Shown in pieces: positions 2-56,011 of a stretch of 64,000 nucleotides of DNA. The translations under genes were made by a program, and so were the position numbers. How positions within the stretch are numbered: the stretch's first letter is position 1; every line of letters begins with the position of its first letter. Under the pieces are notes generated by a model. It was not told the origin of the DNA, did no database searches, and was given only the letters and a program-made list of their open reading frames with translations. The stretch is from an uncultured Planctomycetia bacterium (lineage in GTDB: Bacteria > Omnitrophota > Gorgyraeia > 2-01-FULL-45-10 > JAHFGN01): assembly GCA_964354545.1 (NCBI GenBank), contig CAYHAE010000005.1, positions 12,414 to 76,413 of the forward strand, read 5' to 3'.

Positions 2-301
2 CCATACGTCCTCGTCATACCATCGAAATACAATAACCTATTCGGCGCATATATGCTTTTCTACATGTACGCATTCATGGTCATCGGAGGCATCAGGCTG
101 TTCTTCGCGCGTTTGGCGAGGGGTTCCGCGTATCTCTTGATCTTCTTATTTGTCTATTACCTTGCATCGCACCCCTTATTCTTCAAGATCATCATAGCGC
201 GGCATAGGGCGCCGCTGCACCCGTTCTTCATCATCCTGTTCGCGTTGGGTTTCTTTTACATATGGGATTGGATCAAAAAGAATTCTTACCAGGCACTATG
301 A
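2..301 (+). CDS. Partial CDS (5' end outside window): C-terminal part of a hydrophobic integral membrane protein
   Basis: The reading frame is open from base 2 with no upstream stop and continues into the listed 53..301 ORF. The translation is very hydrophobic (FYMYAFMVIGGIRLFF, LLIFLFVYYLA, FFIILFALGFFYIW). Function is not assignable. Confidence 0.35.
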   Translation, partial: PYVLVIPSKYNNLFGAYMLFYMYAFMVIGGIRLFFARLARGSAYLLIFLFVYYLASHPLFFKIIIARHRAPLHPFFIILFALGFFYIWDWIKKNSYQAL

Positions 302-1761
302 ACGATAGTAGAAAAAAAGCAGTCCTCATATATCCTCCCACCGGCCTCTACGACAGAAGCGACCGTTGTCAGTCGTATCTCGAGAGCGAAACGGGTCAGC
401 TCATCTCTCCTCCCATGGATCTCGCGTACATGGCTGCCGTGCTCGAAAAGGCAGGATACCATTGTTTCGTGAGAGACTACCCGGTTGAAAAGAAAGGGTG
501 GCCGGACCTCGAACGCGACCTCGAGAGGGAGCGGCCCTCCCTGCTCGCGGTAAGCACGACCCTGTCGACCCTGAGCGATGACCTGAGGGCATGCGACATC
601 GCGAAGAGGATCGACAGCGGCTGTCTTACGGTAGGGAAGGGTGGATATGTGGGAGATGAGAGCGAATCGATACTGAGGATGAACCCCCGCCTCGACATCT
701 TCATAAATTACGAGCCGGAATTCGTCATGGATGATATCGCCCGCTCCCGTCCTCTCGATTCCATCAAGGGGATAAGCTTCAGGAGAGGCGAGGAGATCGT
801 CAACAATCCCCCGAGGCCGTTCGACGGCGACCTCGACACCCTTCCGATGCCTGCGCGGCACCTCATAAAAAACGAGTTCTACAAGATGCCGGATACGAGG
901 GAGACTTTTACCACGATCTTCACAGGCAGGGGATGCCCGTTCCGTTGTATCTTTTGTCTCGCGGGAAAAGTGGGCGGGAAGGCCTTGAGGCTTCGTTCGC
1001 CCTCACACGTGATAGCGGAACTCGAAGAGTGCATACGTTCGTTCCGCATAAGGAATTTCTGGATAAGGGCGGATACGTTCACATTCAACAAAAAGTGGGT
1101 CCTCGAGATATGCCGTCTCATGATAGAGAAGAAGTTTTCCATACGGTGGATGACGAATAGCCGCGTCGATATGGTCGACGACGAGATGCTGGGGCTCATG
1201 AAGCGCTCCGGCTGCACGGTGATCGGATTCGGAGTGGAGAGCGGCAGCCAGGACCTCCTTGACAAGATGAAAAAGGGCATTACGCTCTCGCAGACCAAGG
1301 ATGCGGTCGCGATGTGCCGGAGGCACGGAATCAAGACGTACCTGAACTTCGTCATCGGGCTGCCGTGGGAAAGCGAGGATACTTTTCACGAGACGATCCG
1401 GTTCGCAAAGTCCTTGCCTGCCGATATGTATAATTTCAGCCTCTCCTACCCATTCCCGGGGACGGAGCTCTATGAGTACGCGAAGCAGAACGGGCTTTTG
1501 AGGTCTGACGACGCCCTCGCGCGCGTGTACGGGTTTTTCGAGCCCGTCGCGGACACCCTCTATATGAAAAAGGACAGGCTCGCCCAATTGAAGGCGATCG
1601 CATTCAGAAGCGTCATGCTCGATCCGCGGTTCATACTGAGGACCATTTCCGCGACGCGGTCCCCGGCGCTTTTGGTGTCGTATCTGCAGGAGGCGATCAG
1701 GCTCTTCAGGGTGACGCACGGGGTGAGCAGGATGCAGGAGGCCTCACGGGGTCGACGATGA
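298..1761 (+). CDS. Cobalamin (B12)-binding radical SAM enzyme (class B radical SAM)
   Basis: The N-terminus has a B12-binding-like Rossmann segment (KAVLIYPPTGLYD...DLAYMAAVLEKAGYHC). The radical SAM cysteine motif is GRGCPFRCIFC (CxxxCxxC). The ATG at 298 overlaps the upstream stop as ATGA. It is paralogous to four other ORFs in the window. Confidence 0.85.
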   Translation: MNDSRKKAVLIYPPTGLYDRSDRCQSYLESETGQLISPPMDLAYMAAVLEKAGYHCFVRDYPVEKKGWPDLERDLERERPSLLAVSTTLSTLSDDLRACDIAKRIDSGCLTVGKGGYVGDESESILRMNPRLDIFINYEPEFVMDDIARSRPLDSIKGISFRRGEEIVNNPPRPFDGDLDTLPMPARHLIKNEFYKMPDTRETFTTIFTGRGCPFRCIFCLAGKVGGKALRLRSPSHVIAELEECIRSFRIRNFWIRADTFTFNKKWVLEICRLMIEKKFSIRWMTNSRVDMVDDEMLGLMKRSGCTVIGFGVESGSQDLLDKMKKGITLSQTKDAVAMCRRHGIKTYLNFVIGLPWESEDTFHETIRFAKSLPADMYNFSLSYPFPGTELYEYAKQNGLLRSDDALARVYGFFEPVADTLYMKKDRLAQLKAIAFRSVMLDPRFILRTISATRSPALLVSYLQEAIRLFRVTHGVSRMQEASRGRR

Positions 1762-2528
1762 GCGCGCATGCAGTATCAGAGGTATGGGTCGATAAATTGG
1801 AGAGCGAGCACGAGTACTTCCCGCCCTACGTGTGCAGGGAGTTCTTCACCCGGCTGGTCTCCACGCGATGGATATCATCTCTCATAAAGGACCCCTCCGC
1901 GGCAGCTTTTCTGGAGGCGGGATGCGGCATAGGACGGTTTGGCATCGCCATTGCGACCGCAGGGCGGAAGGTTACCCTCATGGACTGCTCCGAGAAGAGC
2001 CTCCAGGCAGCACGCCGCCTCAAGGAACTCGCTGAGGGCTATTTTGGCCCTCTTGATGTGGAGTGCCTCAAGGGCGAGCTTGAGCGCACGCGGTTCAAAG
2101 ACGGGATATTCGACGCGACTTTCAATGAAGGCGTGTTGGAGCACTGGAGCGATCGCTGCGAGCGGATAGGCATGCTGTCGGAGATGGCAAGGGTCACGAA
2201 GGCCGGCGGGCTCGTATCGGTGAGGGTCGTGAATACAAGAAATGCGTTGTATAATTTTCTTTTCCTGGCGTCGCTGAAGAAGACGATACCATTTTGCCAC
2301 AGGTACGACCTCAAGGGTCTCAGGCGCGAAATGGAAGACGCGGGCCTCGATGTCGTGTACTGTGACGGCGAAGTCATCAACGACCCCGGCGTGTGGACGA
2401 GGCGCGGGTGGCTCATCGGGCTATTGAAGGCGGCGGGCTTCGTGATAAACCGCCTGCCAAAGCGTTTCAGAGAGGTCTTGTGCCCGTCCATCTTCTGCAT
2501 CGGCGTAGTGAAGAGGTCGCAGCGATGA
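1758..2528 (+). CDS. Class I SAM-dependent methyltransferase
   Basis: Motif I LEAGCGIGRFG is followed by a typical acidic-residue strand (VTLMDCSE). There is a 4-bp ATGA overlap with the upstream gene. Confidence 0.75.
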   Translation: MSAHAVSEVWVDKLESEHEYFPPYVCREFFTRLVSTRWISSLIKDPSAAAFLEAGCGIGRFGIAIATAGRKVTLMDCSEKSLQAARRLKELAEGYFGPLDVECLKGELERTRFKDGIFDATFNEGVLEHWSDRCERIGMLSEMARVTKAGGLVSVRVVNTRNALYNFLFLASLKKTIPFCHRYDLKGLRREMEDAGLDVVYCDGEVINDPGVWTRRGWLIGLLKAAGFVINRLPKRFREVLCPSIFCIGVVKRSQR

Positions 2529-3940
2529 AGGTCCTACTGGTCAATCCGTCTCAGGAGAAGGTATACGGGGTAAAGATGTCTCCGATATATCCTCCGCTCG
2601 GCGTGCTCTATATAGGCGCGGCTCTCAAGAAACGCGGCCATGACGTGAGGCTGCTCGATGTCGACGTCGACGGGGTCACGCCGCAGACGTTCAGAGGGAC
2701 GCTTGAGTCGTTCAACCCAAGGGCCGTCGGCATCACGAGCGTCACGCCGACGGTCAAAGACGGGCTCAGGTGGGCATCCGAGACAAAAAAATTCGATCCG
2801 TCTATCCGCGTCATTTTCGGAGGGATACACGCGACCATAGCCCCTTTGGAACTGATCCGCGAGACGTGCGTGGATTTCGTGGCCTTTGGCGAAGGCGAGA
2901 AGACCGTCGTAGAGCTCGCGGAAAGGATCGAGGACGGCACGGGGTCCTATTCCGACATACGCGGCATCCTCTATAAAGTGGGAAGCGACGTTATCCGGAA
3001 CAGCCCCCGGGAGCTCATCGAGGACCTCGACGAAATAGAGTTCCCCGACACCGGCCTTCTCAGATCCCTCGCATGCTATGCCCCGCCCGATGCCGTCCGC
3101 ACCCCCGTCGCCACCATCATGACGTCCCGCGGATGCCCGGGGGATTGCACCTTCTGCTGCAGCAAATACATGTTCACGCGGCGCGTCAGGCTGCGGAGCG
3201 TTGACAATATTGTCCGTGAGATAGACCGCCTCGTCGATTCGTACCATGCGAAAGAGATCCACATCGCGGACGATACGTTCACGGTCAACAAGAAAAGGGT
3301 CGTCGATTTCTGCGAACGGGTCCGGGAAAGGGGATACGATCTGCAGTTTGAATTCATGAACGGCCTCAGGGCCGATTTTGTCGACGAAGATATCTTGAGG
3401 GCGCTCAGATCAATACGCGTGAGGAACCTCGGGTTCGGAGTAGAGTCGGGGAGCGATGAGGTGCTGAGGCTCGCGAAGAAGAACATCGATCTAAAGAAGG
3501 TGAAGAGCGCATTCTCCCTCGCCAAGAAGTTCGGCTTTGAGACCTGGGCGTTCTTCATCATAGGCCTCCCGGGAGAGACGGCCAGGTCCGTAGAGCAGTC
3601 GATACGGCTCGCCATCGAGCTTGATCCGGACTTCGCCAAATTCCTCATCCTGAAGCCTTATCCGGGAAGCGAGGTATTTGACTACCTCTCCGAGCGCAAC
3701 CTCATCGACAGCTACGATTACGACAACTACGGTGTCTACACACAACCGGTCCACCATCTGCCTGAGATGTCCAAGGAGGATATGGTGAGATGGCAGAAGA
3801 GGGCATTCGTACAATTCTATTTGCGCCCTCGAAAATTGTTAGGGCATGCGCTTCGGATAAGGTCATTTACCCAGCTGAAACTTGCTCTGAGAGGCCTGCA
3901 ATTTATAGCATTCAATATTTTTAGAGGGCGCGAGAGATGA
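2525..3940 (+). CDS. Cobalamin (B12)-binding radical SAM enzyme
   Basis: The ORF-track start at 2393 was trimmed to the ATG at 2525 (MKVLLVNPS), which overlaps the upstream stop. The B12-binding N-domain is VLYIGAALKKRGHDV. The radical SAM motif is SRGCPGDCTFCCS. Confidence 0.85.
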   Translation: MKVLLVNPSQEKVYGVKMSPIYPPLGVLYIGAALKKRGHDVRLLDVDVDGVTPQTFRGTLESFNPRAVGITSVTPTVKDGLRWASETKKFDPSIRVIFGGIHATIAPLELIRETCVDFVAFGEGEKTVVELAERIEDGTGSYSDIRGILYKVGSDVIRNSPRELIEDLDEIEFPDTGLLRSLACYAPPDAVRTPVATIMTSRGCPGDCTFCCSKYMFTRRVRLRSVDNIVREIDRLVDSYHAKEIHIADDTFTVNKKRVVDFCERVRERGYDLQFEFMNGLRADFVDEDILRALRSIRVRNLGFGVESGSDEVLRLAKKNIDLKKVKSAFSLAKKFGFETWAFFIIGLPGETARSVEQSIRLAIELDPDFAKFLILKPYPGSEVFDYLSERNLIDSYDYDNYGVYTQPVHHLPEMSKEDMVRWQKRAFVQFYLRPRKLLGHALRIRSFTQLKLALRGLQFIAFNIFRGRER

Positions 3941-4000
3941 CATTTTCATTTTTTCATCAGATAGCGTCAAAAACTGTGCTGACTTTAATCTCTATTTTAA

Positions 4001-4076
4001 CGCAGATATTCGCAAATCAAACGCGGATTTACGCAGATATCTGCGACGATCTGCGTTCGATCTGCGCAGATCTGCG
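4001..4076. promoter_or_regulatory. Array of overlapping palindromes built from a CGCAGAT half-site
   Basis: CGCAGATATCTGCG (4032-4045) and GATCTGCGCAGATCTGCG (4059-4076) are perfect palindromes. Extra half-sites lie at 4001-4013 and 4048-4055. The array sits 50-120 bp upstream of the -35 element of the regulator/transporter promoter. Confidence 0.4.
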
Positions 4077-4123
4077 TTAAGAATGTCAACAGGGTTTATT
4101 GCGGCATCTTTCATCATATATGC

Positions 4124-4152
4124 TTGACAACGCATTATGAATAATATATAAT
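4124..4152 (+). promoter_or_regulatory. Sigma70-like promoter (TTGACA, 17 bp spacer, TATAAT)
   Basis: TTGACA lies at 4124-4129. An exact 17-bp spacer follows, then TATAAT at 4147-4152. This is about 40 bp upstream of the ATG at 4193, in an AT-rich intergenic region. Confidence 0.55.
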
Positions 4153-4153
4153 C

Positions 4154-4171
4154 GTTTAGAATGTTCTAAAC
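4154..4171. promoter_or_regulatory. Perfect 18-bp palindrome (operator-like) immediately after the -10 element
   Basis: GTTTAGAATGTTCTAAAC reads as GTTTAGAA-TG-TTCTAAAC and overlaps the predicted transcription start. This position is typical of an autoregulatory repressor operator. The adjacent gene encodes a winged-helix repressor-like protein. Confidence 0.5.
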
Positions 4172-4192
4172 GTAATAAAAGAAGGGAAAGCC

Positions 4193-4687
4193 ATGAATAC
4201 CAAATTAGAGAACGCCCAGCACAGGTTTATGGAAGGAATAGGCACGCTGTGTGACAGCTTCGGCCTGAACAAATTCATCGCCCAACTCTACGCCCTCCTC
4301 TACTTAAGCGAGAGACCCCTCTCCCTCGATGACATGGCGAGCAAGCTCAAGGTGAGCAAGGGCAACATAAGCCTCAATATACGGGAGCTCGAGAAGTGGG
4401 GGGCCGTACGGAACATATGGGTGAAGGGCTCCAGAAAAGACTACTATGAAGCGAACCTGGATGTGAAGAAGGTGATGGCAGGCAAGCTGAAATCCGGCGT
4501 TCAGAGGAGGATGGCCGAAGTCTCTGACATGATCTCGGAGTTCAAGCGCATTATCCAGTCCGCATCGTCTGAACTCACGGACGAGGAGAAGGGTATCGTG
4601 AAGATATACGAGGAGAGGTTGAAGAAGATAGAAGAGCTCGAGGCGCTCGTATCGAATGCGATGAGCCTCGCGGATAAGCTATTATAA
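4193..4687 (+). CDS. GbsR/MarR-family winged-helix transcriptional regulator
   Basis: The segment FIAQLYALLYLSERPLSLDDMASKLKVSKGNISLNIRELEKWGAVR matches the GbsR/OpcR subfamily pattern (LS.EPLSLDE.A..L.VSK..VS.N.R.LE..G.V). The RBS is GAAGGGAAAG. A C-terminal coiled-coil-like tail is present. Confidence 0.6.
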   Translation: MNTKLENAQHRFMEGIGTLCDSFGLNKFIAQLYALLYLSERPLSLDDMASKLKVSKGNISLNIRELEKWGAVRNIWVKGSRKDYYEANLDVKKVMAGKLKSGVQRRMAEVSDMISEFKRIIQSASSELTDEEKGIVKIYEERLKKIEELEALVSNAMSLADKLL

Positions 4688-4696
4688 GGGGTCCTC

Positions 4697-5737
4697 ATGA
4701 AATATAGTCCGATCATGCTTCGGATCATTACAGGGGCGCACTTCTTATTCTTACCCTTGGTGCCGGGTCCCGCCCATGCGGAAGAGAAGGTGATCAGGGT
4801 CGGATATTTCCCGAACATAACCCATTCGCAGGCGGTCATCGGCATCGCGAACGGCGCATTTCAGAAAGAATTGGGTAACGACGTTAAGATAGACGTCAAG
4901 ATATTCAACGCAGGCCCCTCGGCGATAGAAGCGATGTTCGCGGGAGAGCTCGACCTTACGTATATAGGGCCAAATCCCGCCATCAACGGATACGTTAAGT
5001 CCAAAGGGAGCGCCCTGAAGATCGTCGCAGGAGCCACGAGCGGGGGAGCAGGCCTCGTGGTCCGTGAGGATTCCGGAATTCAGAAGATAGGGGATTTCCA
5101 CAACAGGAAGATCGCATCGCCCCAGCTGGGCAATACCCAGGATGTCGCTCTCAGAGGATGGCTTAAAACGAATGGATTCACCCTGCGAGAAAGGGGCGGG
5201 GATGTTCAGGTCATCCCTATCGCCAATCCGGATCAGCTTACTCTTTTTCTCAAAAAGGAGATAGACGGAGCCTGGACGGTGGAGCCGTGGGTGAGCCGCT
5301 TGATCAAGGAAGGTCACGGGAGACTGTACCTGAATGAGCGGTCGATCTGGCCGAACGGAGAATTCGTGACCGCTCATATAATCGTGAGCCAAAAATTCAT
5401 GCGCGAGCACCGGGATCTCGTCAAAAAGTGGGTCGCATGCCACGTCGATCTCACGGGATGGATCAATCAGAATTTGCCCGAGGCGAAAGGTATCTTGAAT
5501 GAAGAGCTGAAGAGGATCACGGGGAAGGCTTTGCCCGCGGATGTCCTCGACGAGGCGTTCGCCCGCCTGAAGGTGACGTATGACCCTATCCAGAATTCGC
5601 TCTTCACATCCGCCCGGTGGGCCTTCGAGCAGGGATTCCTCGGTAAAGAATTTCCGGATCTTTCCGGGATCTACGATCTCACTGTGTTGAACGAAGTTTT
5701 GCGCGAGAAGGGCTTGGAGAATATCGAGAATAAATAG
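4697..5737 (+). CDS. ABC transporter periplasmic substrate-binding protein, NMT1/SsuA/TauA-like (sulfonate/nitrate/bicarbonate class)
   Basis: There is an N-terminal signal peptide (MKYSPIMLRIITGAHFLFLPLVPGPAHA). The NMT1-like fold signature is VGYFPNITHSQAVIGIANG. The gene is followed by the cognate ATPase and permease. Confidence 0.7.
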   Translation: MKYSPIMLRIITGAHFLFLPLVPGPAHAEEKVIRVGYFPNITHSQAVIGIANGAFQKELGNDVKIDVKIFNAGPSAIEAMFAGELDLTYIGPNPAINGYVKSKGSALKIVAGATSGGAGLVVREDSGIQKIGDFHNRKIASPQLGNTQDVALRGWLKTNGFTLRERGGDVQVIPIANPDQLTLFLKKEIDGAWTVEPWVSRLIKEGHGRLYLNERSIWPNGEFVTAHIIVSQKFMREHRDLVKKWVACHVDLTGWINQNLPEAKGILNEELKRITGKALPADVLDEAFARLKVTYDPIQNSLFTSARWAFEQGFLGKEFPDLSGIYDLTVLNEVLREKGLENIENK

Positions 5738-5739
5738 GC

Positions 5740-6531
5740 ATGGCAAAGCTGAAACTACACGATGTCTCAAAACGTTTTAGGACCCGGCATGGATTCCTGA
5801 CGGTATTGAAGGATATCGATCTGGAGGTTGAGGACGGAGAATTTCTTTGCATTGTCGGGCCATCGGGGTGCGGGAAGACAACGCTTCTGAATATTATTGC
5901 CGGGTTAGAAAATCCGTCAAAAGGCCAGGCGCTGTACAAGGGCACACCGATCTCCGGGCCCAGCCCGAACAGGTTGATCATCTTCCAGGAATTGGGGTTG
6001 TTTCCATGGTTGACGGCGCAGAAGAATGTGGAGTTTGGGCTAAAGATGAAGAGGATCCCGCAGCGCAAAAGACAAGAAATAGCCCTCGAGTATCTCGATA
6101 TGATGAATCTCATCAAGTTTAAGGATTCGTATATCCATGAGTTGTCCGGAGGCATGAAGCAACGGGTTGCCCTCGCGAGGGCATGGGCCATGGATCCGGA
6201 GATCCTGCTCATGGACGAGCCCTTTGCTTCGCTGGATGCTCAGACGAGAGATATGCTTCATGATGAACTCCAGAGAATTTGGGAGAGGACGAAAAAGACC
6301 GTTATTTTCGTCACGCACAATGTAAGAGAGGCAGTATGTCTTGGGGACAGGGTGATCGTCCTTTCTGCGCTCCCCGCGGAGATCAAGGCGTGCTTCCAGA
6401 TCGATTTGAAGCGTCCACGGCACATCGAAGACCTCGGCCTGATGGAGATCGTGAGGTCGGTTTTGACGGAGTTGCGAAGCGAGATCGAGAAAACCTTCAG
6501 AGAGGAATTAAGTGCGGCAGAAAATACTTAA
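5740..6531 (+). CDS. ABC transporter ATP-binding protein (SsuB/TauB/NrtD-like)
   Basis: Walker A is GPSGCGKTT. The ABC signature is LSGGMKQRVALARA. Walker B is ILLMDEPFASLD. Confidence 0.85.
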   Translation: MAKLKLHDVSKRFRTRHGFLTVLKDIDLEVEDGEFLCIVGPSGCGKTTLLNIIAGLENPSKGQALYKGTPISGPSPNRLIIFQELGLFPWLTAQKNVEFGLKMKRIPQRKRQEIALEYLDMMNLIKFKDSYIHELSGGMKQRVALARAWAMDPEILLMDEPFASLDAQTRDMLHDELQRIWERTKKTVIFVTHNVREAVCLGDRVIVLSALPAEIKACFQIDLKRPRHIEDLGLMEIVRSVLTELRSEIEKTFREELSAAENT

Positions 6532-7267: not shown

Positions 7268-7291
7268 GGCGCCTGACTGAAGTGCGGGGCT

Positions 7292-7470
7292 AATCCCCTC
7301 CGCAAAATCCCCGGCTTTTGGTTCGACGAGCTCACCATCCCTCGAACCATCCCGAGCCGTTCGACAGGCTCACGATGCCTCGAATGGTGCCGAGCAGAGT
7401 CGAGGCACGAAGTCGAGGGGCAAGCCGGGGATGGGAAGTTGCGGAATAGGATTTTGCTTCGGGGAGGGAG
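7292..7470. repeat. MITE/REP-like intergenic element, copy A (long variant) with terminal inverted repeats
   Basis: The 5' end is AATCCCCTCCGCAAAATCCCCGG. The 3' end is GGATTTTGCTTCGGGGAGGGAG, an imperfect reverse complement of the 5' end. The interior holds nested inverted repeats (GGTTCGA...TCGAACC, CCTCGA...TCGAGG). The same termini occur at 27258-27346 and 61629-61706. Confidence 0.5.
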
Positions 7471-7533
7471 TCTCGGCCCTGCCAGCGGAGCTGGCGAGGC
7501 CGAGGGGCTCCACAAAAGAGAAGGAGACGATCG

Positions 7534-15053: not shown

Positions 15054-15060
15054 GCACAAT

Positions 15061-41963: not shown

Positions 41964-41979
41964 ACGATCGAGGTCATGT

Positions 41980-43047: not shown

Positions 43048-43048
43048 A

Positions 43049-48197: not shown

Positions 48198-49706
48198 ATG
48201 AGAGTGCTTTTCATAAATTTCAACCTTGGCTCTACCGCGGGGATAAACAATGGTATCGCGATCCTATCCGCGGTGTTAAAAGCAAAAGGACATCGGGTAG
48301 GGCTTCTTTTTCTGTGCGAAGAGCTCGGGTACAACTTTGATCTCTCCCGTATGCAGGGGGACGTAGAGGATTTCAAGCCGGATATCATAGGGATTTCTCT
48401 CATGGAGCCTCAGAGCAAATATATGGAGGAGTTCTGCAAGGATGCACGGCGTTATTATAAGGGATTCATAGTATGCGGCGGCCCGTATCCCACAATGGCG
48501 CCGGACGATGTCCTTTCTGTCAAAGACGTTGACGCCGTATGTGTCGGTGAAGGGGAGGGGGCTCTCGTCGATCTCGCCGAGGCGCTGGAGAGAGGCGAGG
48601 ACTATCGCCATATCAGGAATATATGGTCGAGGTCTGCCGAGGGCACGATCGTCAAGAACAGGCTCCGTCCCTTTGTCGATCTCGCGACATTGCCGCCTGA
48701 GGATAAAGAGCTCTTCGATATCGAAACGATCGTACGTGTGAAGAATTACCAGCTTGAGATGATGCTCGGCAGGGGTTGTATTTATCAATGCGCATACTGC
48801 ATCAACAAATCATATATCACGCGGTATCAAGACCTATGCGAAAGGCCCGTGGGACTCCGCGATTACGTGCGGGTAAAGGACGTTGATACGGTGATACAGG
48901 AGATCAAGGGAACAACGCGGCGCCATCCGACGATCAGGAAACTCGCTTTTATCGACGATAACTTCCTGATGTACGAGGGATTTCTCGAGGATTTCTGTCT
49001 TCACTACAAGGAAGAGGTGCGAGTGCCTTTCATGTGCAATGTGAATCCCATGTCGTTCACACAAAAGAAGGGTGCGCTTCTCAAGGAGGCGGGATGCGAT
49101 GACATACGTTTTGGGGTCGAAAGCGGGAGCGCGAGGATCAAGCGGGATATCATGAAACGGCACATTACAAACAGGAGCGTGGTGGAGGCGTTCAAGGCAG
49201 CCCGGGACCTCGGCCTCATGACGAGCTCTTTTAACATGATCGGCCTCCCCGGGGAGACGAAGGACGAGGTCTTCGAAACCATCCGGCTGAATGCAGCGAT
49301 CTTGCCTGACACGGTGAAGGTGATGACCTTCTATCCGTTCAAGAACACCCCCCTCTACGACAGGTGCGAGGAGCTCGGGCTGATAGATTACGAAAAGAAA
49401 CACGGGCTCGATAACTATGACACGGTAACGTGTTTGAAATTTCCTCCCGCACACCGGCTTTTTTTGAAGAAGATCCAGATCGTATTTAACGTATACCTTA
49501 ATCTGTTTCTCGGCGGCGAAACGGCGTCAGAATACGCGCCGCATGCACGAGAGATCGAGGAGATGGACGAGGAAAGGTGGGGTTCGTACGATTTCGATTC
49601 AGTCGACCGGGCACTCTCCGAAAAACTACGCAGGCGCGGGGTGGTGCATTATTCAAAATTCATGAACAGGAGCCTCGCGGTAAAATTTCCAAGCAAGCAC
49701 GTGTAG
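48198..49706 (+). CDS. Cobalamin (B12)-binding radical SAM enzyme
   Basis: The start was trimmed to the ATG at 48198 (MRVLFINFNLGSTAGINNGIAILSAVLKAKGH). The radical SAM motif is MLGRGCIYQCAYCIN. Confidence 0.85.
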   Translation: MRVLFINFNLGSTAGINNGIAILSAVLKAKGHRVGLLFLCEELGYNFDLSRMQGDVEDFKPDIIGISLMEPQSKYMEEFCKDARRYYKGFIVCGGPYPTMAPDDVLSVKDVDAVCVGEGEGALVDLAEALERGEDYRHIRNIWSRSAEGTIVKNRLRPFVDLATLPPEDKELFDIETIVRVKNYQLEMMLGRGCIYQCAYCINKSYITRYQDLCERPVGLRDYVRVKDVDTVIQEIKGTTRRHPTIRKLAFIDDNFLMYEGFLEDFCLHYKEEVRVPFMCNVNPMSFTQKKGALLKEAGCDDIRFGVESGSARIKRDIMKRHITNRSVVEAFKAARDLGLMTSSFNMIGLPGETKDEVFETIRLNAAILPDTVKVMTFYPFKNTPLYDRCEELGLIDYEKKHGLDNYDTVTCLKFPPAHRLFLKKIQIVFNVYLNLFLGGETASEYAPHAREIEEMDEERWGSYDFDSVDRALSEKLRRRGVVHYSKFMNRSLAVKFPSKHV

Positions 49707-49722: not shown

Positions 49723-50673
49723 ATGCCGAATAAGGGTCCGAATATTTCTGTGGTCTTTCCCGTGTACAATGAAGAAGGAAACCTGCACGTTCTCTACCAG
49801 AGGGTAAAGGAGGCGTGCGCCAAGTCAGGCGTGGATTATGAGATGGTATTTGTTGATAATGGAAGTACCGATCGTTCTTTGGACGTGATCAAGGGATTAA
49901 GGAATCACGATAGCAAGGTGCGGTTCATGTCCCTCTCCCGCAATTTCGGCCACCAGAATGCCCTTTTTGCGGGCATGTCGCACGCTACCGGCGACGCGGT
50001 CATCACCATGGACGCCGACCTGCAGCATCCGCCGTCCCTGATACCTGCGATGGTCGATGCGTGGAAGAAGGGCGCCGAGGTCGTATATACGATAAAAGAG
50101 GATTACCGCCTCGCGCTCAAGAAGCACTTCCTGATCAAGTCTTTCTACTGGCTCATGTCGAGGATATCGGGCGTACAGTTGTCGTTCGGTCAGTCCGACT
50201 TCAGGCTTCTCGATAGACGAGCGCTTGAGGCCGTTATCAGGATACCGGAATATCATAAGTTCCTGCGGGGGCAGGTGAGCTGGATCGGTTTTCGGCAGCA
50301 GGGTATATCGTATAACGTAGAGAAGCGCTTGAGCGGAGAATCGAAATTTTCGTACAGGAACCTCTTTTCATTTGCCCTGGACGGGATATTCGCATTCTCC
50401 AGATATCCGCTTCACCTGATAATGCTCGCGGGGCTCGTCATATCCTCGGTTTCCGCTCTTTATATAATGTGTGTACTGCTTGTATGGGCCCTCAAGGCCC
50501 TCGGTATCGAAATGAGCGTGCCGCTGCCGCCGGGGTGGGTCGCGCTCGTGGTCTCGATTTATTTCCTCGGAAGCATTCAGCTTATCGCGATCGGCATTTT
50601 AGGCGAATATATCGGGCGCATCTACGACCAGACCAAGGGGCGCCCGGTCTTCATCGTGAGGGAGATGTCGTAG
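49723..50673 (+). CDS. GT2 polyprenol-phosphate glycosyltransferase (ArnC/GtrB/DPM1-like)
   Basis: The GT2 signature is ISVVFPVYNEEGNL...VDNGSTDRS...TMDADLQHPP. Two C-terminal transmembrane helices are present, typical of undecaprenyl-phosphate sugar synthases. Confidence 0.8.
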   Translation: MPNKGPNISVVFPVYNEEGNLHVLYQRVKEACAKSGVDYEMVFVDNGSTDRSLDVIKGLRNHDSKVRFMSLSRNFGHQNALFAGMSHATGDAVITMDADLQHPPSLIPAMVDAWKKGAEVVYTIKEDYRLALKKHFLIKSFYWLMSRISGVQLSFGQSDFRLLDRRALEAVIRIPEYHKFLRGQVSWIGFRQQGISYNVEKRLSGESKFSYRNLFSFALDGIFAFSRYPLHLIMLAGLVISSVSALYIMCVLLVWALKALGIEMSVPLPPGWVALVVSIYFLGSIQLIAIGILGEYIGRIYDQTKGRPVFIVREMS

Positions 50674-50687
50674 AAAGAGGAGTGCGC

Positions 50688-51395
50688 ATGGTAAAAGTCG
50701 TTATCCTGTGCGGAGGCCGCGGCCATCGGCTCAAGCCGCTGACGTCAAAGGTGCCGAAACCGCTCGTGACATTGAACGGCAAACCTGTCATCCGGCATAT
50801 CATAGAGTTTTATATACGCAAGGGCTTTCGCCATTTCGTCCTCTGCGTGGGATACCGCGCCGATGCCATCAGGCGGTTCGTCGCCGCCCATTCGTTCGAT
50901 GCCGAGATCGAGATCTCCGACGCAGGTCCGGATGCGGGCATACTCAAGCGCCTGTACCTCGCGCGCCATCTTATCGCCGGGAAGGCCATCGTAACATACG
51001 GAGATACCTTCATCGATATCGCCCCGCATCGCATGCTACGAGAGCATGAGAAGGCAGGGTCCCTCGCGACCATCACCATTGCGGACATACGAAGCCCGTT
51101 CGGGCTCGTGCAGTGCAGAGGCAAGAGCGGCGTGACCTCATTTGAAGAGAAACCCCTGCTCCAATACTATATAGGCCATATGATACTGGAGGCCGCGGCG
51201 CTCGATAGCCTCGACCGTGACCTCATATCGATGCCGGACGGCGAAGGGCTCGTGCAGCTCTTCAAGCGATTGATCAAGAAGAAGAGGCTGAATGCGTATA
51301 AGCACTCGGGGCTCAGGATCACGTTCAACACGCCGCTTGAACATCAGAAGGCGGAGGAAGAGTTCGTACAATTCTTTACAGAACAGGAAGGGTGA
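50688..51395 (+). CDS. Sugar-1-phosphate nucleotidyltransferase (RfbF/RmlA-like)
   Basis: The NTP_transferase motif is KVVILCGGRGHRLKPLTSKVPKPLVTLNGKPVI. The start was trimmed to the ATG at 50688, after an AAGAGGAG RBS. Confidence 0.7.
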   Translation: MVKVVILCGGRGHRLKPLTSKVPKPLVTLNGKPVIRHIIEFYIRKGFRHFVLCVGYRADAIRRFVAAHSFDAEIEISDAGPDAGILKRLYLARHLIAGKAIVTYGDTFIDIAPHRMLREHEKAGSLATITIADIRSPFGLVQCRGKSGVTSFEEKPLLQYYIGHMILEAAALDSLDRDLISMPDGEGLVQLFKRLIKKKRLNAYKHSGLRITFNTPLEHQKAEEEFVQFFTEQEG

Positions 51396-51397
51396 CG

Positions 51398-52384
51398 ATG
51401 GAGAATCTTAAAGGAAAGAAGGTCCTTGTGACAGGCGGGAGCGGTTTCATCGCCTCACACCTCTCGAGACGGCTGGTGCAGGAGGGCGCGCACGTGTTTG
51501 TCCTCACCCGCTATAACAGTATCATAGACAATGTGCGCCTCACCGACATATGGGATGAGATAGTCCCGGTCGAGGCAGACCTGCGCAACCTCGACGCACT
51601 CGAGAAGATACGGTCCTTCGCGCCGGAGATCGTCTACCATTTTGCGGCCTATAACCATGTAGGAGACAGCTTTTCGAATGTCTCTGAGGCGATCGACGTA
51701 AATTGCAAAGGCACCGTGAATCTCCTGGATGCCTATGAAGATTATAAAAAGTTCGTATACATCTCTTCTTCGGAGATCTACGGATTCCAGAATGCTGTCC
51801 CGTTTGCCGAGGATGCAGCCCCATTTCCGATCTCGCCTTATGCGGTCGGGAAGTATGCCGGCGAGCTCTATGCGCGGATGAAGTGGAAGGTCTTCAACAA
51901 ACCCATCGCGGTCCTGAGGCCGTTCAACGCCTTCGGGCCTTTCCAGAGCCCCCGCGCCGTTATCGCGGAGCTCATCATCAAATGTCTCAACGGTGAGGAC
52001 GTGGTCACGACCAAGGGCGTACAGACGAGGGATTTTAATTATATCGAAAACCTGGTCGACGGTTTTATCCGGGCCGGCACGAATGACGATGCCGTAGGCG
52101 AGATCATCAATATAGGGTCAGGCGTGGAGATATCCATCGCAGATCTTGTAAAGAAGATCCATCTGCTCACGGATTCGAAGTCGAGGTTGCGGATAGGAGA
52201 ATTGCAGTATCGGCCTACTGAGATCTGGCGCATGGCAGCCGACAACAGGAAGGCGTCGAAGATCTTCGGGTGGTCGCCGCGAATCGACCTGGAGAAGGGA
52301 TTGATAAAGACGATCGAGTGGTACCGGAAATTTAACGCTCTCTTCGCCGATGCCGCCTCGACGCTCTACGAGTTGTGCGAATGA
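51398..52384 (+). CDS. NAD-dependent sugar nucleotide epimerase/dehydratase (SDR)
   Basis: The Rossmann motif is KVLVTGGSGFIASHLSRRL. The YxxxK is SPYAVGKYAGE. The start is the ATG at 51398. Confidence 0.8.
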   Translation: MENLKGKKVLVTGGSGFIASHLSRRLVQEGAHVFVLTRYNSIIDNVRLTDIWDEIVPVEADLRNLDALEKIRSFAPEIVYHFAAYNHVGDSFSNVSEAIDVNCKGTVNLLDAYEDYKKFVYISSSEIYGFQNAVPFAEDAAPFPISPYAVGKYAGELYARMKWKVFNKPIAVLRPFNAFGPFQSPRAVIAELIIKCLNGEDVVTTKGVQTRDFNYIENLVDGFIRAGTNDDAVGEIINIGSGVEISIADLVKKIHLLTDSKSRLRIGELQYRPTEIWRMAADNRKASKIFGWSPRIDLEKGLIKTIEWYRKFNALFADAASTLYELCE

Positions 52385-53253
52385 GGAAGGCAGCGGCGCT
52401 TTGCAATAAAACCGTCTTGGTAACCGGAGGTAAGGGCTTTCTCGGCACACATCTGGCGAGCGCTCTCGTGCCGCTCTGCAGGAAGCTCGATTGTTACGGC
52501 GGCGACGTGAGGGATATCTGGCGTTTCGCCAGGCCCTACGATATCGTGTGCCACCTCGCCGCGCTCAATAAGGCGGGCCCCGGTGGCAGTACCGATGCGC
52601 TCTTCGACGTGAATGTGAACGGCACCCTGGCTGTGATGCGCTATTGCGCCACGTCAGGCGCCCGGTGTGTATTCGCGTCTTCATCCGCAGTATACGCCCC
52701 GAGCCCCGTTCGCAGGCCCCTTGGCGAGGGCGCGCGCATTGCGCCCGCATCACCTTACGGGATGAGCAAGATGCTCGCGGAAGATGTGTGCCGGCATTAT
52801 GCTCACGATCATGGCGTTCGGGTAGCGGTGCTCCGTATTTTCAATATCTACGGTAACGGCCAAGAGGAGCCGTTCCTTGTTCCGTATGCGATGCGGCAGT
52901 TATCGCAGGGCAAACCGGTCGTCCTGAAGACACCGGAGGCAGTGAGGGACTTTATACACGTCAGGGACGTGGCGAGGGCATACATTGCCGCATGCCGGCA
53001 TGAGCATAAAGGGTTCAGGGTGTTCAATGTGGGGACCGGCCGCGGCATGCGTGTGGCGGATATGGTCGAACAGATCGCCCTCGCGCTGAGCGCGAACCCC
53101 CGGAAGGCAATAAGGCGCGAGCGGCACGATAAAAAGGAGGATTTTGTGATCGCAGAGCCGCGTCTCATCCGGAAGGTCCTGCGCTGGCACCCCACGCTGT
53201 CAATAGACGATGGCGTTGCGCTTGTGTGCGGCGGAGGGGAAGGGCTCGGATGA
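52381..53253 (+). CDS. NAD-dependent epimerase/reductase (SDR; GDP-fucose synthase/4-reductase-like)
   Basis: The Rossmann motif is KTVLVTGGKGFLGTHLASAL. The YxxxK is SPYGMSKMLAE. There is an ATGA overlap with the upstream gene. Confidence 0.7.
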   Translation: MRKAAALCNKTVLVTGGKGFLGTHLASALVPLCRKLDCYGGDVRDIWRFARPYDIVCHLAALNKAGPGGSTDALFDVNVNGTLAVMRYCATSGARCVFASSSAVYAPSPVRRPLGEGARIAPASPYGMSKMLAEDVCRHYAHDHGVRVAVLRIFNIYGNGQEEPFLVPYAMRQLSQGKPVVLKTPEAVRDFIHVRDVARAYIAACRHEHKGFRVFNVGTGRGMRVADMVEQIALALSANPRKAIRRERHDKKEDFVIAEPRLIRKVLRWHPTLSIDDGVALVCGGGEGLG

Positions 53254-53283
53254 GGATGAGCGCTCACGCATCTTAAGAGCGAA

Positions 53284-53550
53284 TTGAAGAAACAGATAGA
53301 AGATGCCGTTGGACGGTATAATTCGCTCACCCGCAGCCCCTCGTTCCAATACTGCCTCAGGCGCCGAAAGGACTGCCTCGAGGGGTTATCTCGGGGTATC
53401 GGCGAGGAGAAGACCATGCTGGATCTCGCTGCAGGCACGGGTAGCTATTCCGCAATCCTCGCGAAGCATGGCGACGTGGTAAACATGGATCCATCGTTCA
53501 ATGCCGTAAACCTATGCATGCCGATCCGAATTCTTCAAAAATCACAGTAA
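53284..53550 (+). pseudogene. Truncated methyltransferase fragment at a GC-content junction
   Basis: The 88-aa ORF carries only a motif-I-like segment (MLDLAAGTGSYSAILAKHG). It ends where composition drops to low GC, and it overlaps the next gene start. Confidence 0.3.
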
Positions 53551-54584
53551 TTGTTCCTGTCCATAACGCCGCGGGCACATTGCGACAATGTGTGCACGCA
53601 TTGAAGGAGCAAACGGATTCAAACTATGAAGTGATAGTTGTGGATGATCATAGTAATGATGATTCTCCCCACATCTGTAAGGAATCGGGTTTTAAAGTAT
53701 TAAGGCTTGCCGTGAATAAGGGACAGGCGGTGGCCAGGAACGCAGGAGTCAAGGAGGCAACCGGACAGATCATTGCATTTGTTGATTCCGATGTAGTGGT
53801 CCCTCCCGATTGGCTTGCACGGTACAGGCAGCTGCTTAATAAATATCAAGATGCGGATATGATCTGCAGCGGTTATAGCGAAAATGTCGGTAATGATAAA
53901 CCGGCGATGTTCGCGTTTTATGAATCCGTATACCGACGGATGAAAATTCCTATGTATATATCTTCAAGCACCTCTTCAAATTGTATCATCTATAAGGAGG
54001 CATTTGACGAGGTTGGCGGTTATCCGGAATATTATATCAAGCCTAAGAAAAATGTGGCTGAACAAAAAGCGGTAGCTACCACAGAAGATTCAGAATTAGG
54101 ATTTTTACTTAGCGTCAAAGGAAAGAAAATAGTATGGAGTCACGACAATCCTGTGCGGCATTATTTTCGAAAAACATGGGGAGGATATATAAAGCAACAA
54201 GCAGGGTTTTCGAGATATGCAGTATTAAGTCTTTTTAAATTTCCCAAGAAAATTTACAGCATACCCATTTATGGCGGGGAAAAGATAACTCCTAATTTGG
54301 CCATTGCATCTGTGATGGTATCGGCATTATTTATCCCATTTTTTGGCGTATCAGCTATATCGGTAGCGTGTTCTGTTATTATAGAGATAGTGTGCATTCT
54401 CTCGGTCTATATTCTGAATAGGGGATTTATCGGTTATCTCAAGGTGAATATGAAAGATTGCTCGTATCCCCAACTGCTTTTTTGGATAGCAGTTTCTCGT
54501 ATAGCCTGGCTCTACGGCGTGATATTAGGCGTAAAGGACGGTTGTGTGATGTGGTGGTATAACCGCACCAAGGGAATAGCGTGA
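53514..54584 (+). CDS. GT2 glycosyltransferase with C-terminal transmembrane region
   Basis: The GT2 signature is ITVIVPVHNAAGTLRQCVHALKEQTDSNYEVIVVDDHSNDDS...DSDVVV. A hydrophobic C-terminus is present. GC content is markedly lower than in flanking genes. Confidence 0.7.
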   Translation: MHADPNSSKITVIVPVHNAAGTLRQCVHALKEQTDSNYEVIVVDDHSNDDSPHICKESGFKVLRLAVNKGQAVARNAGVKEATGQIIAFVDSDVVVPPDWLARYRQLLNKYQDADMICSGYSENVGNDKPAMFAFYESVYRRMKIPMYISSSTSSNCIIYKEAFDEVGGYPEYYIKPKKNVAEQKAVATTEDSELGFLLSVKGKKIVWSHDNPVRHYFRKTWGGYIKQQAGFSRYAVLSLFKFPKKIYSIPIYGGEKITPNLAIASVMVSALFIPFFGVSAISVACSVIIEIVCILSVYILNRGFIGYLKVNMKDCSYPQLLFWIAVSRIAWLYGVILGVKDGCVMWWYNRTKGIA

Positions 54585-54592
54585 GATAAAAG

Positions 54593-56011
54593 ATGAAGAT
54601 TTTATTGACAACCCCGCCCCAACCGGCATATTCTATTTTACCACATAGATATATGGAGCTGCACAAGTTTCTAAAATGGCTGGGCGGGAATAGGCCAATT
54701 TTAGGCATTCAACCGCCCTATGGCCTTATGTATCTATCGGCATATTTAAAGCGGAGTGGTCACCAGGTATTTGTTGTAGACGGCTTATTGTCTTCGCAGC
54801 AATATATTCTGGAGATGATCAAGAAGGAAAAGATCGATATGGTAGGCATTTCCAGCGTCTCATGGAATTGGAGCGAATCAAAAAAACTGGCGCATGTGCT
54901 GCGCAAGGAATACCCCTATCTGAAATTGGCAGTCGGCGGCGCGCACGTTAACAGCGAGCAAGGAAAGGTCTTGGAAGAATGCCGTTATTTCGACTACGCA
55001 TTTTATGGAGACGGGGAAGAGGTCTTAAGCAGGGTTGTATCGGCGCTATCATCGGGCAAGAAACCAGAGCTTAGCGATGGATTTGCGTTGAGAGAGGGAG
55101 ACAGGGTCATAGTTTCGGAGAAGAAAGCCTTTATCGAAGACATAAGCGGGATGTTACTGCCGGATAGAGAATCGCTGGGTTTTGATAATTATCGGCCTTC
55201 GCCTCTTTCTTATAGGCGAATTCCAGCGACAGCGATGTTTGGTTCGCGAGGCTGCCCCTATACATGCACTTTTTGTCATACCGAAAAGCGTGTGCGTATG
55301 AGAAAGGCCGAGAACCTTATCGAAGAGATCGAGCTGCTTCAAAAGAAATATGGGATTAAAGAGATACTATTTTTTGATGACACATTTACCCTTGACAAGA
55401 AACGCATTTTCGAATTCTGCGAGCTGATAGTCAAGAAGGGGATCGATCTGAGCTGGTGTGCCAGTGTTCGTTCCGATACCGTTGACCCAGAGATGCTCAA
55501 GGCGATGAAAAGGGCGGGGTGCTGGCGACTGCTTATGGGTATTGAAAGTGGCTCGCAGCGCATATTGGATCTGATGAAAAAAAGGACAACGTTGCAGCAG
55601 ATAGAGTGCGCCGTTGATATGATCAATGCCGCAGGAATTCAAGTTTATGGTATGTTTATATTCGGCTTTCCTACGGAAACCTTCGAAGAAGGGCTGGAGA
55701 CCATCAGGTTTATGAAGAAGCTTAAACTTGACTACGCCAGCGTATGCGGGTTGACGCCTTTTCCCGGGACGGAAATATACACGCAAGTAGCTCACGAGCC
55801 CGGCTTCAAGGGTTTTGATTATATGAACATGTTTGATATATCTTATGTGCCTACGACAATGAGAGAGGAGCAGGTGAGGGATCTATTAAAGCGAAGTCTT
55901 CGCGAGTTCTATCTTCGTCCTTCTTATATAGCGCGGCAGATACGCACTATACGTTCCATGGAGGACCTCATGAGGTATGTAAGGGGTTTTATATTGATTT
56001 TTCTTAGGTAA
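54593..56011 (+). CDS. Cobalamin (B12)-binding radical SAM enzyme (low-GC copy)
   Basis: The B12-domain is LGIQPPYGLMYLSAYLKRSGHQV. The radical SAM motif is MFGSRGCPYTCTFCHT. Confidence 0.85.
   Translation: MKILLTTPPQPAYSILPHRYMELHKFLKWLGGNRPILGIQPPYGLMYLSAYLKRSGHQVFVVDGLLSSQQYILEMIKKEKIDMVGISSVSWNWSESKKLAHVLRKEYPYLKLAVGGAHVNSEQGKVLEECRYFDYAFYGDGEEVLSRVVSALSSGKKPELSDGFALREGDRVIVSEKKAFIEDISGMLLPDRESLGFDNYRPSPLSYRRIPATAMFGSRGCPYTCTFCHTEKRVRMRKAENLIEEIELLQKKYGIKEILFFDDTFTLDKKRIFEFCELIVKKGIDLSWCASVRSDTVDPEMLKAMKRAGCWRLLMGIESGSQRILDLMKKRTTLQQIECAVDMINAAGIQVYGMFIFGFPTETFEEGLETIRFMKKLKLDYASVCGLTPFPGTEIYTQVAHEPGFKGFDYMNMFDISYVPTTMREEQVRDLLKRSLREFYLRPSYIARQIRTIRSMEDLMRYVRGFILIFLR

Follow-up and report, generated by a model that had tools for sequence, protein, structure and literature searches.

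Distinct class-B-type radical S-adenosylmethionine enzymes in separate cassettes of a large putative surface-glycan locus from an uncultured Omnitrophota-lineage bacterium

The 64,000-nucleotide stretch analyzed here (hereafter the window; contig CAYHAE010000005.1 of an uncultured bacterium assigned to the Omnitrophota in GTDB) contains five distinct subfamilies of class-B-type radical S-adenosylmethionine (SAM) enzymes, labelled rSAM1 to rSAM5, within a single glycan locus. Each of the five is found in a conserved, exchangeable glycan cassette, and in related genomes enzymes of this kind are coupled, both by position and by physical fusion, to glycosyltransferases of the GT2, GT-C and GT4 types. 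We consider the chances about even that the five are tailoring enzymes of separate cassettes which modify carrier-bound sugars, with rSAM2 to rSAM5 acting by methylcobalamin-dependent C-methylation; we infer which substrate is modified, that this happens on the carrier and that a methyl group is transferred. The five genes are as follows.

298-1761, plus strand: rSAM1, class-B-type radical SAM enzyme, 487 residues, marginal B12 domain (PF04055, PF02310)
2525-3940, plus strand: rSAM2, class-B radical SAM enzyme, 471 residues (PF02310, PF04055; motifs GG and GEGE)
29932-31635, plus strand: rSAM3, class-B radical SAM enzyme, 567 residues with a C-terminal extension (PF02310, PF04055; motifs GG and GEGD)
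48198-49706, plus strand: rSAM4, class-B radical SAM enzyme, 502 residues (PF02310, PF04055; motifs GG and GEGE)
54593-56011, plus strand: rSAM5, class-B radical SAM enzyme, 472 residues, low GC content (PF02310, PF04055; motifs GG and GDGE)

The initial annotation had proposed five paralogous genes for proteins of 470-570 residues that share a B12-binding domain and a radical SAM core, and all five open reading frames (ORFs) were recovered at these positions with lengths in that range. Both domains exceed the Pfam gathering cut-offs in every copy: PF02310, the domain on which the annotation hinged, scores 33.3, 85.9, 57.5, 64.2 and 72.8 bits in rSAM1 to rSAM5 (cut-off 32.1 bits, which rSAM1 barely passes), and PF04055 scores 91, 95.1, 62.2, 82.5 and 94.1 bits (cut-off 29.5 bits). 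The CxxxCxxC core and glycine-rich loop that had been read from the sequence appear in an alignment of the five as an invariant RGCxxxCxFC motif and Gly-Gly loop, together with an invariant GxESGS. Three of the starts (298, 2525 and 48198) are internal to longer, mechanically called ORFs, and each is independently backed: the first by an ATGA in which it overlaps the stop of the preceding ORF, the second by a product identical to a database protein of 471 residues (P0001), and the third by homologues that align from residue 1 of rSAM4.

Pairwise alignment of the five proteins gives identities of only 23-31%, indicating that they are ancient paralogues and not recent duplicates; an origin by recent tandem duplication is thereby ruled out. 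Comparison of all window proteins with one another revealed no sixth class-B copy. Orthologues elsewhere, mostly on Omnitrophota-like metagenome contigs, are closer (62-76% identity) than the paralogues within the window. The proposal that several copies imply iterative or position-specific tailoring needs correction: rather than one iteratively duplicated enzyme, the locus possesses five separate subfamilies, each with a different cassette.

The sugar character of the locus, which had also been claimed, is borne out by Pfam and NCBIfam matches to NeuB, a hydrolysing-type 2-epimerase, cytidine monophosphate (CMP)- and nucleoside diphosphate (NDP)-sugar transferases, GT2 enzymes, GT-C/PMT_2 enzymes and a sulfotransferase. 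Approximately 58 genes, all on the plus strand and many joined by 4-nucleotide stop/start overlaps, fill the window. Only about eight intergenic gaps exceed 100 nucleotides (for example 3941-4192, 7268-7533, 27221-27473 and 53254-53513), several of them at or near cassette borders. Four cassettes, A to D, hold the five radical SAM genes. Cassette A contains rSAM1 and rSAM2 together with the following genes.

2-301, plus strand: C-terminal portion of a GT-C (PMT_2-type) membrane glycosyltransferase truncated at the window start; opens cassette A, with its stop overlapping the rSAM1 ATG
1758-2528, plus strand: class I SAM-dependent methyltransferase between rSAM1 and rSAM2 (Methyltransf_11, _25, _31)
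4193-4687, plus strand: MarR/TrmB-like winged-helix protein downstream of cassette A (weak MarR_2 and HTH_11 matches)

This order is kept on three related metagenome contigs (L001-L003; protein labelled Candidatus Omnitrophota by NCBI), with identities of 55% for the GT-C enzyme, 69% for rSAM1, 53% for the SAM-methyltransferase, 69% for rSAM2 and 71% for the MarR-like protein. The GT-C value comes from tblastn, in which 2-301 matches residues 506-596 of a 604-residue PMT_2 protein of L001. The related contigs have one extra gene between rSAM2 and the MarR-like protein, and a NeuB pathway follows.

Cassette B is built around rSAM3.

27474-28739, plus strand: GFO/IDH/MocA oxidoreductase (Pfam), upstream partner of rSAM3
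28709-29935, plus strand: Ldh_2 dehydrogenase (Pfam), upstream partner of rSAM3
31632-39687, plus strand: GDSL hydrolase, CTP_transf_3 cytidylyltransferase, GT2::CTP_transf_3 fusion, FkbM methyltransferase, 634-residue protein and ATP-binding cassette (ABC) exporter (Pfam)

The rSAM3 family is tight (approximately 555 residues, 55-62% identity) and is found in Omnitrophota, Saganbacteria and Brocadiaceae. In two related loci (L085 and L086) the GFO and Ldh_2 genes flank the rSAM3 orthologue at 53-64% identity. The flanks in L085 comprise a protein of about 650 residues, GFO, Ldh_2, GDSL, cytidylyltransferase, the GT2::cytidylyltransferase fusion, a protein of about 620 residues and the ABC exporter; L086 has most of the cassette B genes, partly reordered and without the GDSL hydrolase, and L087 is a short fragment with part of the set only. 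The order is also partly kept in a fourth locus, L110. The GT2::CTP_transf_3 fusion itself (33574-34941, 455 residues) has counterparts in L085, L086 and L110 (54-70% identity), each time within an rSAM3 cassette.

Cassettes C and D, which contain rSAM4 and rSAM5 respectively, follow one another near the end of the window.

46166-48163, plus strand: 665-residue TIGR04326-like surface carbohydrate biosynthesis protein upstream of rSAM4 (NCBIfam 89.5 bits, cut-off 250)
49723-50673, plus strand: ArnC/PgfS-like GT2 with 3 predicted transmembrane segments (NCBIfam, full-length match)
50469-51395, plus strand: NTP-transferase (Pfam)
51392-53253, plus strand: two SDR epimerase/dehydratases (Pfam; SDR, short-chain dehydrogenase/reductase)
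53514-54584, plus strand: GT2b, a GT2 with 3 predicted transmembrane segments and low GC content, partner of rSAM5 (Pfam Glycos_transf_2, 121 bits)
56016-57938, plus strand: GT-C/PMT_2 membrane glycosyltransferase of 640 residues with 11 predicted transmembrane segments, downstream of rSAM5 (PF13231, 27.5 bits, cut-off 26.1)

Orthologues of rSAM4 occur in 25 metagenome loci, and identity is 58-63% for the majority of those that match over the full length. The GT2, NTP-transferase and SDR partners adjoin them in L095, L104, L110 and L115, and weak counterparts of the 46166 protein lie near them in L097, L101 and L108. For rSAM5 the orthologues are 56-76% identical; in L088-L091 a GT2 gene lies directly upstream with overlapping stop and start, and in L090 and L091 a 621-residue PMT_2-like protein, 38% identical to the 56016 product, lies downstream.

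The GT2b-rSAM5 pair stands out in composition. The GC content of rSAM5 is 0.46 (0.52 at third codon positions, GC3) and that of GT2b 0.42 (GC3 0.415), as against 0.55-0.60 (GC3 about 0.70) for most of the locus, and the GC steps coincide with gene borders near 53.5 and 56.1 kb, delimiting a two-gene patch. On a 1.87-Mb contig (L110) the window order is reproduced from the GT2::cytidylyltransferase gene to the last NTP-transferase, with a single unrelated 235-residue ORF where the window has GT2b-rSAM5. The absence of the pair from this syntenic contig supports its separate acquisition, as had been suggested for the 54593 copy from its GC content, and a foreign, separate origin of the pair is thus supported. 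A search for mobile-element signatures found only short direct or inverted repeats at chance level flanking the patch.

The association with glycan genes extends well beyond these cassettes. Homologues of rSAM2 number more than 4300 at E<1e-20, and a GTDB scan for its relatives confirmed at least 563 candidate stretches. The family is patchily distributed (Omnitrophota, Planctomycetes, Lentisphaerae, Desulfovibrionaceae, candidate phyla radiation (CPR) bacteria, DPANN archaea, Anaerolineae and others). A sample of 80 loci from GTDB species-representative genomes was compared with the other genes of the same loci as a control, using crude ORF calls of our own on loci that are related and therefore non-independent. 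A GT2 gene lies no more than two genes away from 42% of the class-B radical SAM genes versus 17% of other genes (odds ratio 3.6, p 1.5e-8), and a protein with at least seven transmembrane segments from 43% versus 22% (odds ratio 2.6, p 9e-6); both kinds stand beside one radical SAM gene in 24 of the loci. Two to five class-B copies occur within about 21 kb in 32 of the 80. Among ten sampled multi-membrane-spanning neighbours, eight match PMT_2, six of them above the gathering cut-off. In all ten sampled GT2 neighbours of 230-250 residues, polyprenyl- or dolichyl-phosphate sugar synthases are among the strongest NCBIfam matches, and for most of the ten they are the top match (PgfS, ArnC, AglJ, PpgS), at low scores. 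On a further contig (L088/L089), six class-B genes surround GT2 genes and a dehydratase-aminotransferase fusion within about 17 kb, and this array lies directly beside a ribosomal-protein/trmD operon.

Gene fusions, which come from automatic metagenome gene calls and need checking, provide a physical link of the same kind. They include a 1246-residue protein with B12 and radical SAM domains and two GT4/GT1 modules (L093, 2245-5985; also in L092 and L094), a 710-residue fusion of B12, radical SAM and GT2 domains (L083), a 901-residue radical SAM-GT4 protein (L001), a class I methyltransferase fused to a class-B radical SAM enzyme (P0240) and, among library representatives, GT2 fused to an rSAM1-type enzyme (P0376 and P0416). 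Two proteins of about 2,300 residues (P0421 and P0425) join a SPASM radical SAM module to four class-B modules in tandem; four class-B modules also occur in P0403, and two in several proteins of about 1,000 residues. As judged from these predicted fusions, which show gene types that are separate in the window joined in one protein, such genes act together elsewhere. The longest predicted proteins (P0403, P0421, P0425, P0469, P0422, P0492 and the L093 protein) span 1,200-2,600 residues, most with two to four class-B modules, sometimes including SPASM, GT2 or GT4 modules. A preprint on Omnitrophota describes radical SAM domains in the sugar-metabolism modules of giant proteins (bioRxiv 10.64898/2026.06.07.730766), which fits the fusions found here, and the long multi-module proteins may be related to those giant sugar-metabolism proteins.

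The possibility that the five proteins belong cleanly to a clade with another function, such as BchE or HpnR, was ruled out, all five falling far below every curated NCBIfam equivalog cut-off. Partial matches come closest with HpnJ or BchE (100-230 bits; cut-offs 480-580). For rSAM1 to rSAM5 in order, BchE (TIGR02026) scores 156, 230, 136, 78 and 183 bits (cut-off 481.35), HpnJ (TIGR03471) 214, 178, 116, 100 and 171 bits (577.6), AprD4 (NF033070) 121, 95, 49, 34 and 93 bits, in the core only (500), QCMT (TIGR04014) 127, 131, 89, 80 and 118 bits (360) and B12_rSAM_oligo (TIGR04295) 59, 83, 49, 45 and 63 bits (400). HpnR (TIGR04367) reaches at most 133 bits (650), and the PhpK and ApyD profiles are likewise far under threshold for all five. 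No hopanoid genes were seen in the Pfam annotation of the window.

The nearest sequences in the PDB are QCMT/MgmA and AprD4, followed by TokK, OxsB, CysS and TsrM. Structure 9CCB is QCMT/MgmA, and AprD4 is a sugar 1,2-diol dehydratase that binds no cobalamin although class-B similarity networks include it (PMC12931638); a Rossmann N-domain is thus insufficient in itself for cobalamin binding. In AlphaFold models of rSAM2 and rSAM1 (predicted local distance difference test, pLDDT, 90.8 and 86.9), the N-domain is a five-stranded Rossmann fold and the core a partial TIM barrel. Foldseek places AprD4 first for both models (template modelling (TM) score 0.74-0.79) and QCMT next (0.63-0.77), with AprD4, QCMT, TsrM, CysS, TokK and OxsB all matched at probability 1.0. 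Because all solved class-B enzymes match alike, the fold cannot tell a methylase from an AprD4-like enzyme; the Foldseek scores of methylases and of non-methylating members (AprD4, OxsB) are similar, and no sequence signature separates the two.

In OxsB, TsrM and TokK, base-off cobalamin is held by a Gly-Gly in beta4 and a Gly-Glu at the start of alpha5 (PMC9204698). The GG motif is present in rSAM2 to rSAM5 together with GEGE, GEGD, GEGE and GDGE, respectively, and a family profile aligns the N-domain with those of QCMT, TokK, OxsB, TsrM and CysS, matching GEGE in QCMT and TokK and the Gly-Gly in TokK. The same profile aligns AprD4 from the radical SAM core onward only (180 bits in the core, 4 bits in the N-domain). 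By sequence, the N-domains of rSAM2 to rSAM5 are thus of the true cobalamin-binding type.

This does not extend to rSAM1, which has YEPE where the others have GEGE; its 69%-identical L001 orthologue has NNEPE, and in the wider rSAM1 subfamily AKG[AGV] replaces GG. Such degeneration of both motifs makes cobalamin use by rSAM1 doubtful, and with it the description of all five enzymes as cobalamin-binding. The rSAM1 subfamily also possesses a motif of its own, PPTGxYxR(E/D)DRCQ with a near-invariant Cys-Gln (residues 13-25, window positions about 334-372), which is missing from rSAM2 to rSAM5 and overlaps a low-confidence loop of the AlphaFold model (residues 19-32, pLDDT <50).

Taken in this light, each radical SAM enzyme would be the tailoring enzyme of its own exchangeable cassette, all within a single extensive surface-glycan locus of an uncultivated anaerobe whose nearest named relatives are Omnitrophota metagenome-assembled genomes. 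In cassettes A, C and D the basis would be a polyprenyl-phosphate-type GT2 and/or a GT-C (PMT_2) transferase, and their radical SAM enzymes would modify a sugar on its carrier (polyprenyl phosphate or nucleotide) at the cytoplasmic side of the membrane; the modified unit would then be flipped and transferred by the GT-C enzyme, comparable to the place of ArnD between ArnC and ArnT. In cassette B, rSAM3 and the GFO and Ldh_2 oxidoreductases and cytidylyltransferases would act on a CMP-activated acidic sugar. The suggestion in the initial annotation that CMP- or NDP-sugars form the context thus stands in that such genes are present, but three of the cassettes are centred instead on polyprenyl-phosphate-type GT2 and GT-C enzymes. 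For rSAM2 to rSAM5 the reaction would be methylcobalamin-dependent methylation of an unactivated sugar carbon, with SAM serving as both radical initiator and methyl donor, while rSAM1 may act without cobalamin. C-methylation by rSAM2 to rSAM5 is the leading guess. A farther-reaching version, which we hold only tentatively and think rather doubtful, is that these enzymes C-alkylate or radically rewrite a lipid-linked sugar before flipping, and that stacked or fused modules yield multiply C-methylated or branched surface sugars, not yet seen chemically, in Omnitrophota, CPR bacteria, DPANN archaea, Planctomycetes and other hosts.

Several observations weigh against the cassette-tailoring reading with C-methylation. 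AprD4 and not a methylase is the top structural match, and the motifs of rSAM1 are degenerate. Neither a cobalamin riboswitch nor, in the Pfam annotation, any gene for B12 transport or synthesis was found in the window. The GT2 at 49723 scores 286.6 bits with PgfS and 170.4 bits with ArnC, under cut-offs of 500 and 529, and the GT2 and PMT_2 assignments in the relatives are likewise far under equivalog cut-offs, while the adjacency statistics come from crude calls on related loci, as noted above. Timing on polyprenyl phosphate would follow by analogy with the Arn, Gtr and Pgf systems and by analogy only. Finally, no literature linking class-B radical SAM enzymes to surface-glycan or polyprenyl-phosphate modules was found, which is weak evidence given incomplete coverage.

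The main rival, and a serious one especially for rSAM1, is radical sugar chemistry that does not methylate: 1,2-diol dehydration of the AprD4 kind, epimerization, oxidation or ring contraction as in OxsB or HpnJ. In the dehydration variant a partner reductase would give deoxy sugars; in all of these variants the B12-like domain would be structural or an electron sink. The top Foldseek match of the rSAM1 and rSAM2 models is AprD4 in complex with its sugar substrate, AprD4 is the best PDB sequence match for rSAM1 and rSAM5, rSAM1 and rSAM4 score highest with the HpnJ profile of NCBIfam, and the many nearby SDR and GFO reductases could include a partner reductase; the example of AprD4, which lacks cobalamin despite its class-B network placement (PMC12931638), and the degenerate motifs of the rSAM1 subfamily point the same way. 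However, the AprD4 equivalog score does not exceed 121 bits against a cut-off of 500, the match is confined to the core, unlike that of genuine cobalamin enzymes, which extends across the N-domain with GG and GEGE, both cobalamin motifs are intact in four of the five copies, and characterized class-B members are mostly methylases (PMC12931638, PMC9204698). On balance such chemistry appears somewhat unlikely for the set as a whole.

It is appreciably less probable that the substrate is no sugar at all and that the glycan genes are mere island neighbours, the enzymes acting instead on a lipid carrier or membrane lipid (polyprenyl or a hopanoid-like tail) or on the protein to which the GT-C enzyme attaches its sugar, by side-chain methylation of the kind carried out by QCMT or RiPP methylases. 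PMT_2 enzymes can glycosylate proteins, the protein methylase QCMT is among the two closest solved relatives, and partial NCBIfam matches to HpnJ, HpnR and a ladderane lipid B12-radical SAM family exist. Nevertheless the scores for those lipid and QCMT families are far under their cut-offs, nucleotide-sugar enzymes dominate the rSAM3 and rSAM4 cassettes, and the window annotation shows no genes for lipid synthesis, hopanoids or precursor peptides; the direct fusions, moreover, are to glycosyltransferase domains, making a lipid or protein substrate less likely. Least probable, and effectively excluded, is coincidence, in which an anaerobe rich in class-B enzymes would simply have gathered five of them in a long variable island with no shared pathway. 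These enzymes are indeed extremely numerous (55,477 representatives at E<=1e-3) and the island is a GC mosaic, yet the glycan neighbours of each copy are conserved in distant genomes, the enrichment of GT2 and multi-membrane-spanning neighbours holds against the within-locus control, and both the multi-copy loci and the multi-module and glycosyltransferase fusions described above exist. The concern that the sugar context might be coincidental is thereby answered.

Comparison with known systems places the five enzymes near several precedents without equating them to any. QCMT/MgmA (PDB 9CCB; TIGR04014) has the same two-domain layout in about 450 residues, is the best or second-best PDB sequence match for all five, and aligns at GG and GEGE. 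It differs in methylating a protein side chain, as the MCR glutamine C-methyltransferase, in its genomic context, and in its low identity (about 22-24%; TIGR04014 80-131 bits against 360). AprD4 (PDB 6FD2) shares with the proposed reaction a sugar substrate, paromamine, but it belongs to an aminoglycoside (apramycin) antibiotic cluster and not to a surface-glycan locus. The established chemical precedents are GenK, GenD1/GntE and Fms7, class-B radical SAM C-methyltransferases on aminoglycoside sugars (PMC9204698), which show the cobalamin-dependent methylation of unactivated sugar carbons proposed here; compared by description only, they act on free pseudo-oligosaccharide antibiotics in actinomycetes and are not accompanied by GT2/GT-C modules. 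CysS (PDB 9N1B), matched by fold and by profile, lengthens an O-methyl group that a conventional methyltransferase has installed. The pairing of methyltransferase and radical SAM genes in cassette A and the P0240 fusion resemble such O-methylation followed by radical C-methylation, a resemblance that serves as a lead only, since CysS has 645 residues, acts on a benzoate bound to a carrier protein and is remote (27-28 bits by phmmer).

In the ArnC-ArnD-ArnT, GtrB-GtrA-GtrC and PgfS-PgfM systems a GT2 loads a sugar onto polyprenyl phosphate and a GT-C enzyme transfers it outside the membrane. The window resembles them in that the GT2 at 49723 gives full-length matches to PgfS and ArnC, the PMT_2 proteins are of GT-C type, and the gene order GT2, modifying enzyme, GT-C parallels ArnC-ArnD-ArnT as known for that family; all window scores, however, are under the equivalog cut-offs. 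To our knowledge such modules use a deformylase or flippase as intermediate enzyme, if they have one, and no radical SAM enzyme is known in that place. The uncharacterized family TIGR04295 has the same domain architecture, but at 45-83 bits against 400 the five are non-members; we take it to occur in an oligosaccharide-type gene cassette of rhizobia.

The enzyme class is thus well known, while a regular role in surface-glycan or polyprenyl-phosphate modules is undescribed in the literature found, itself weak evidence of novelty. Class-B radical SAM enzymes are among the largest enzyme groups of mostly unknown function, and the characterized members listed in two reviews act on antibiotics, cofactors, hopanoid lipids or peptides (PMC12931638, PMC9204698). 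In the window and related loci such enzymes seem to be constant companions of GT2 and GT-C enzymes, sometimes fused to them, which suggests that a sizeable share of the uncharacterized members may serve cell-surface glycan assembly in almost wholly uncultivated lineages. If so, they would represent a new class of sugar modification for bacterial and archaeal envelopes, provide a functional context for thousands of annotations as "B12-binding radical SAM", and imply a demand for vitamin B12 in envelope synthesis by organisms thought to depend on hosts or partners; compact three-gene cassettes, such as 53514-57938, would be open to heterologous testing. The findings point to an unstudied and apparently widespread chemical tailoring of surface sugars in uncultivated anaerobes.

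The remainder of the locus is also revealing of the glycan that may be assembled. It includes four GT2 genes and two GT-C/PMT_2 membrane transferases (the first of them truncated at position 1), as well as the ABC exporter and NDP-sugar enzymes; no tRNA gene or Rfam family was found in the window. Genes at 4697-10156 and 25796-27220 specify an NMT1-type ABC transporter, an adenosine 5'-phosphosulfate (APS) kinase, an ATP sulfurylase, a CysQ-like phosphatase and a Sulfotransfer_3 protein. Because the locus makes its own 3'-phosphoadenosine 5'-phosphosulfate (PAPS), its glycan is probably sulfated.

A pathway resembling that for legionaminic acid, a nonulosonic acid, occupies 10062-21252 and includes a 4,6-dehydratase, a DegT aminotransferase, a PglD-like acetyltransferase, NeuB, a hydrolysing-type 2-epimerase, a cytidylyltransferase and a CBS-nucleotidyltransferase. 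The match of the 15252-16388 product to the N-acetyl sugar amidotransferase WbuX (357 bits, cut-off 203) suggests an acetamidino-substituted sugar in the glycan. A second acidic-sugar block, ulosonic-acid-like, lies at 39806-46176. Its products are an HpcH/HpaI aldolase, a KdsB-like cytidylyltransferase, a hexapeptide acyltransferase, a GFO oxidoreductase and a SIS isomerase, in addition to a methyltransferase, a 2-hydroxyacid dehydrogenase and an IMPase-like phosphatase. The set resembles a route to a CMP-activated 3-deoxy-ulosonic acid that proceeds through an aldolase and not through NeuB, and parts of it recur in a related locus (L030).

Two further radical SAM genes with SPASM domains (PF04055 and PF13186; 21224-22219 and 22240-23298, plus strand), with 26% mutual identity, are part of another stretch of low GC content (19.5-23.3 kb, GC 0.46-0.48) and adjoin genes for a GNAT protein and the CBS-nucleotidyltransferase. 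Similar SPASM genes recur next to class-B radical SAM genes in many related loci, and SPASM domains are fused to class-B modules in P0421, P0425 and P0481. The pair probably belongs to the same tailoring toolkit as the class-B enzymes.

Three proteins of 630-670 residues without a Pfam domain (23698-25716, 35946-37850 and 46166-48163) are candidate transferases of CMP-activated sugars; one is weakly TIGR04326-like and one weakly similar to the BFO_1060 glycosyltransferase. Counterparts of the 23698 and 35946 proteins recur beside cytidylyltransferase genes in five related loci (L030, L085, L086, L090 and L110).

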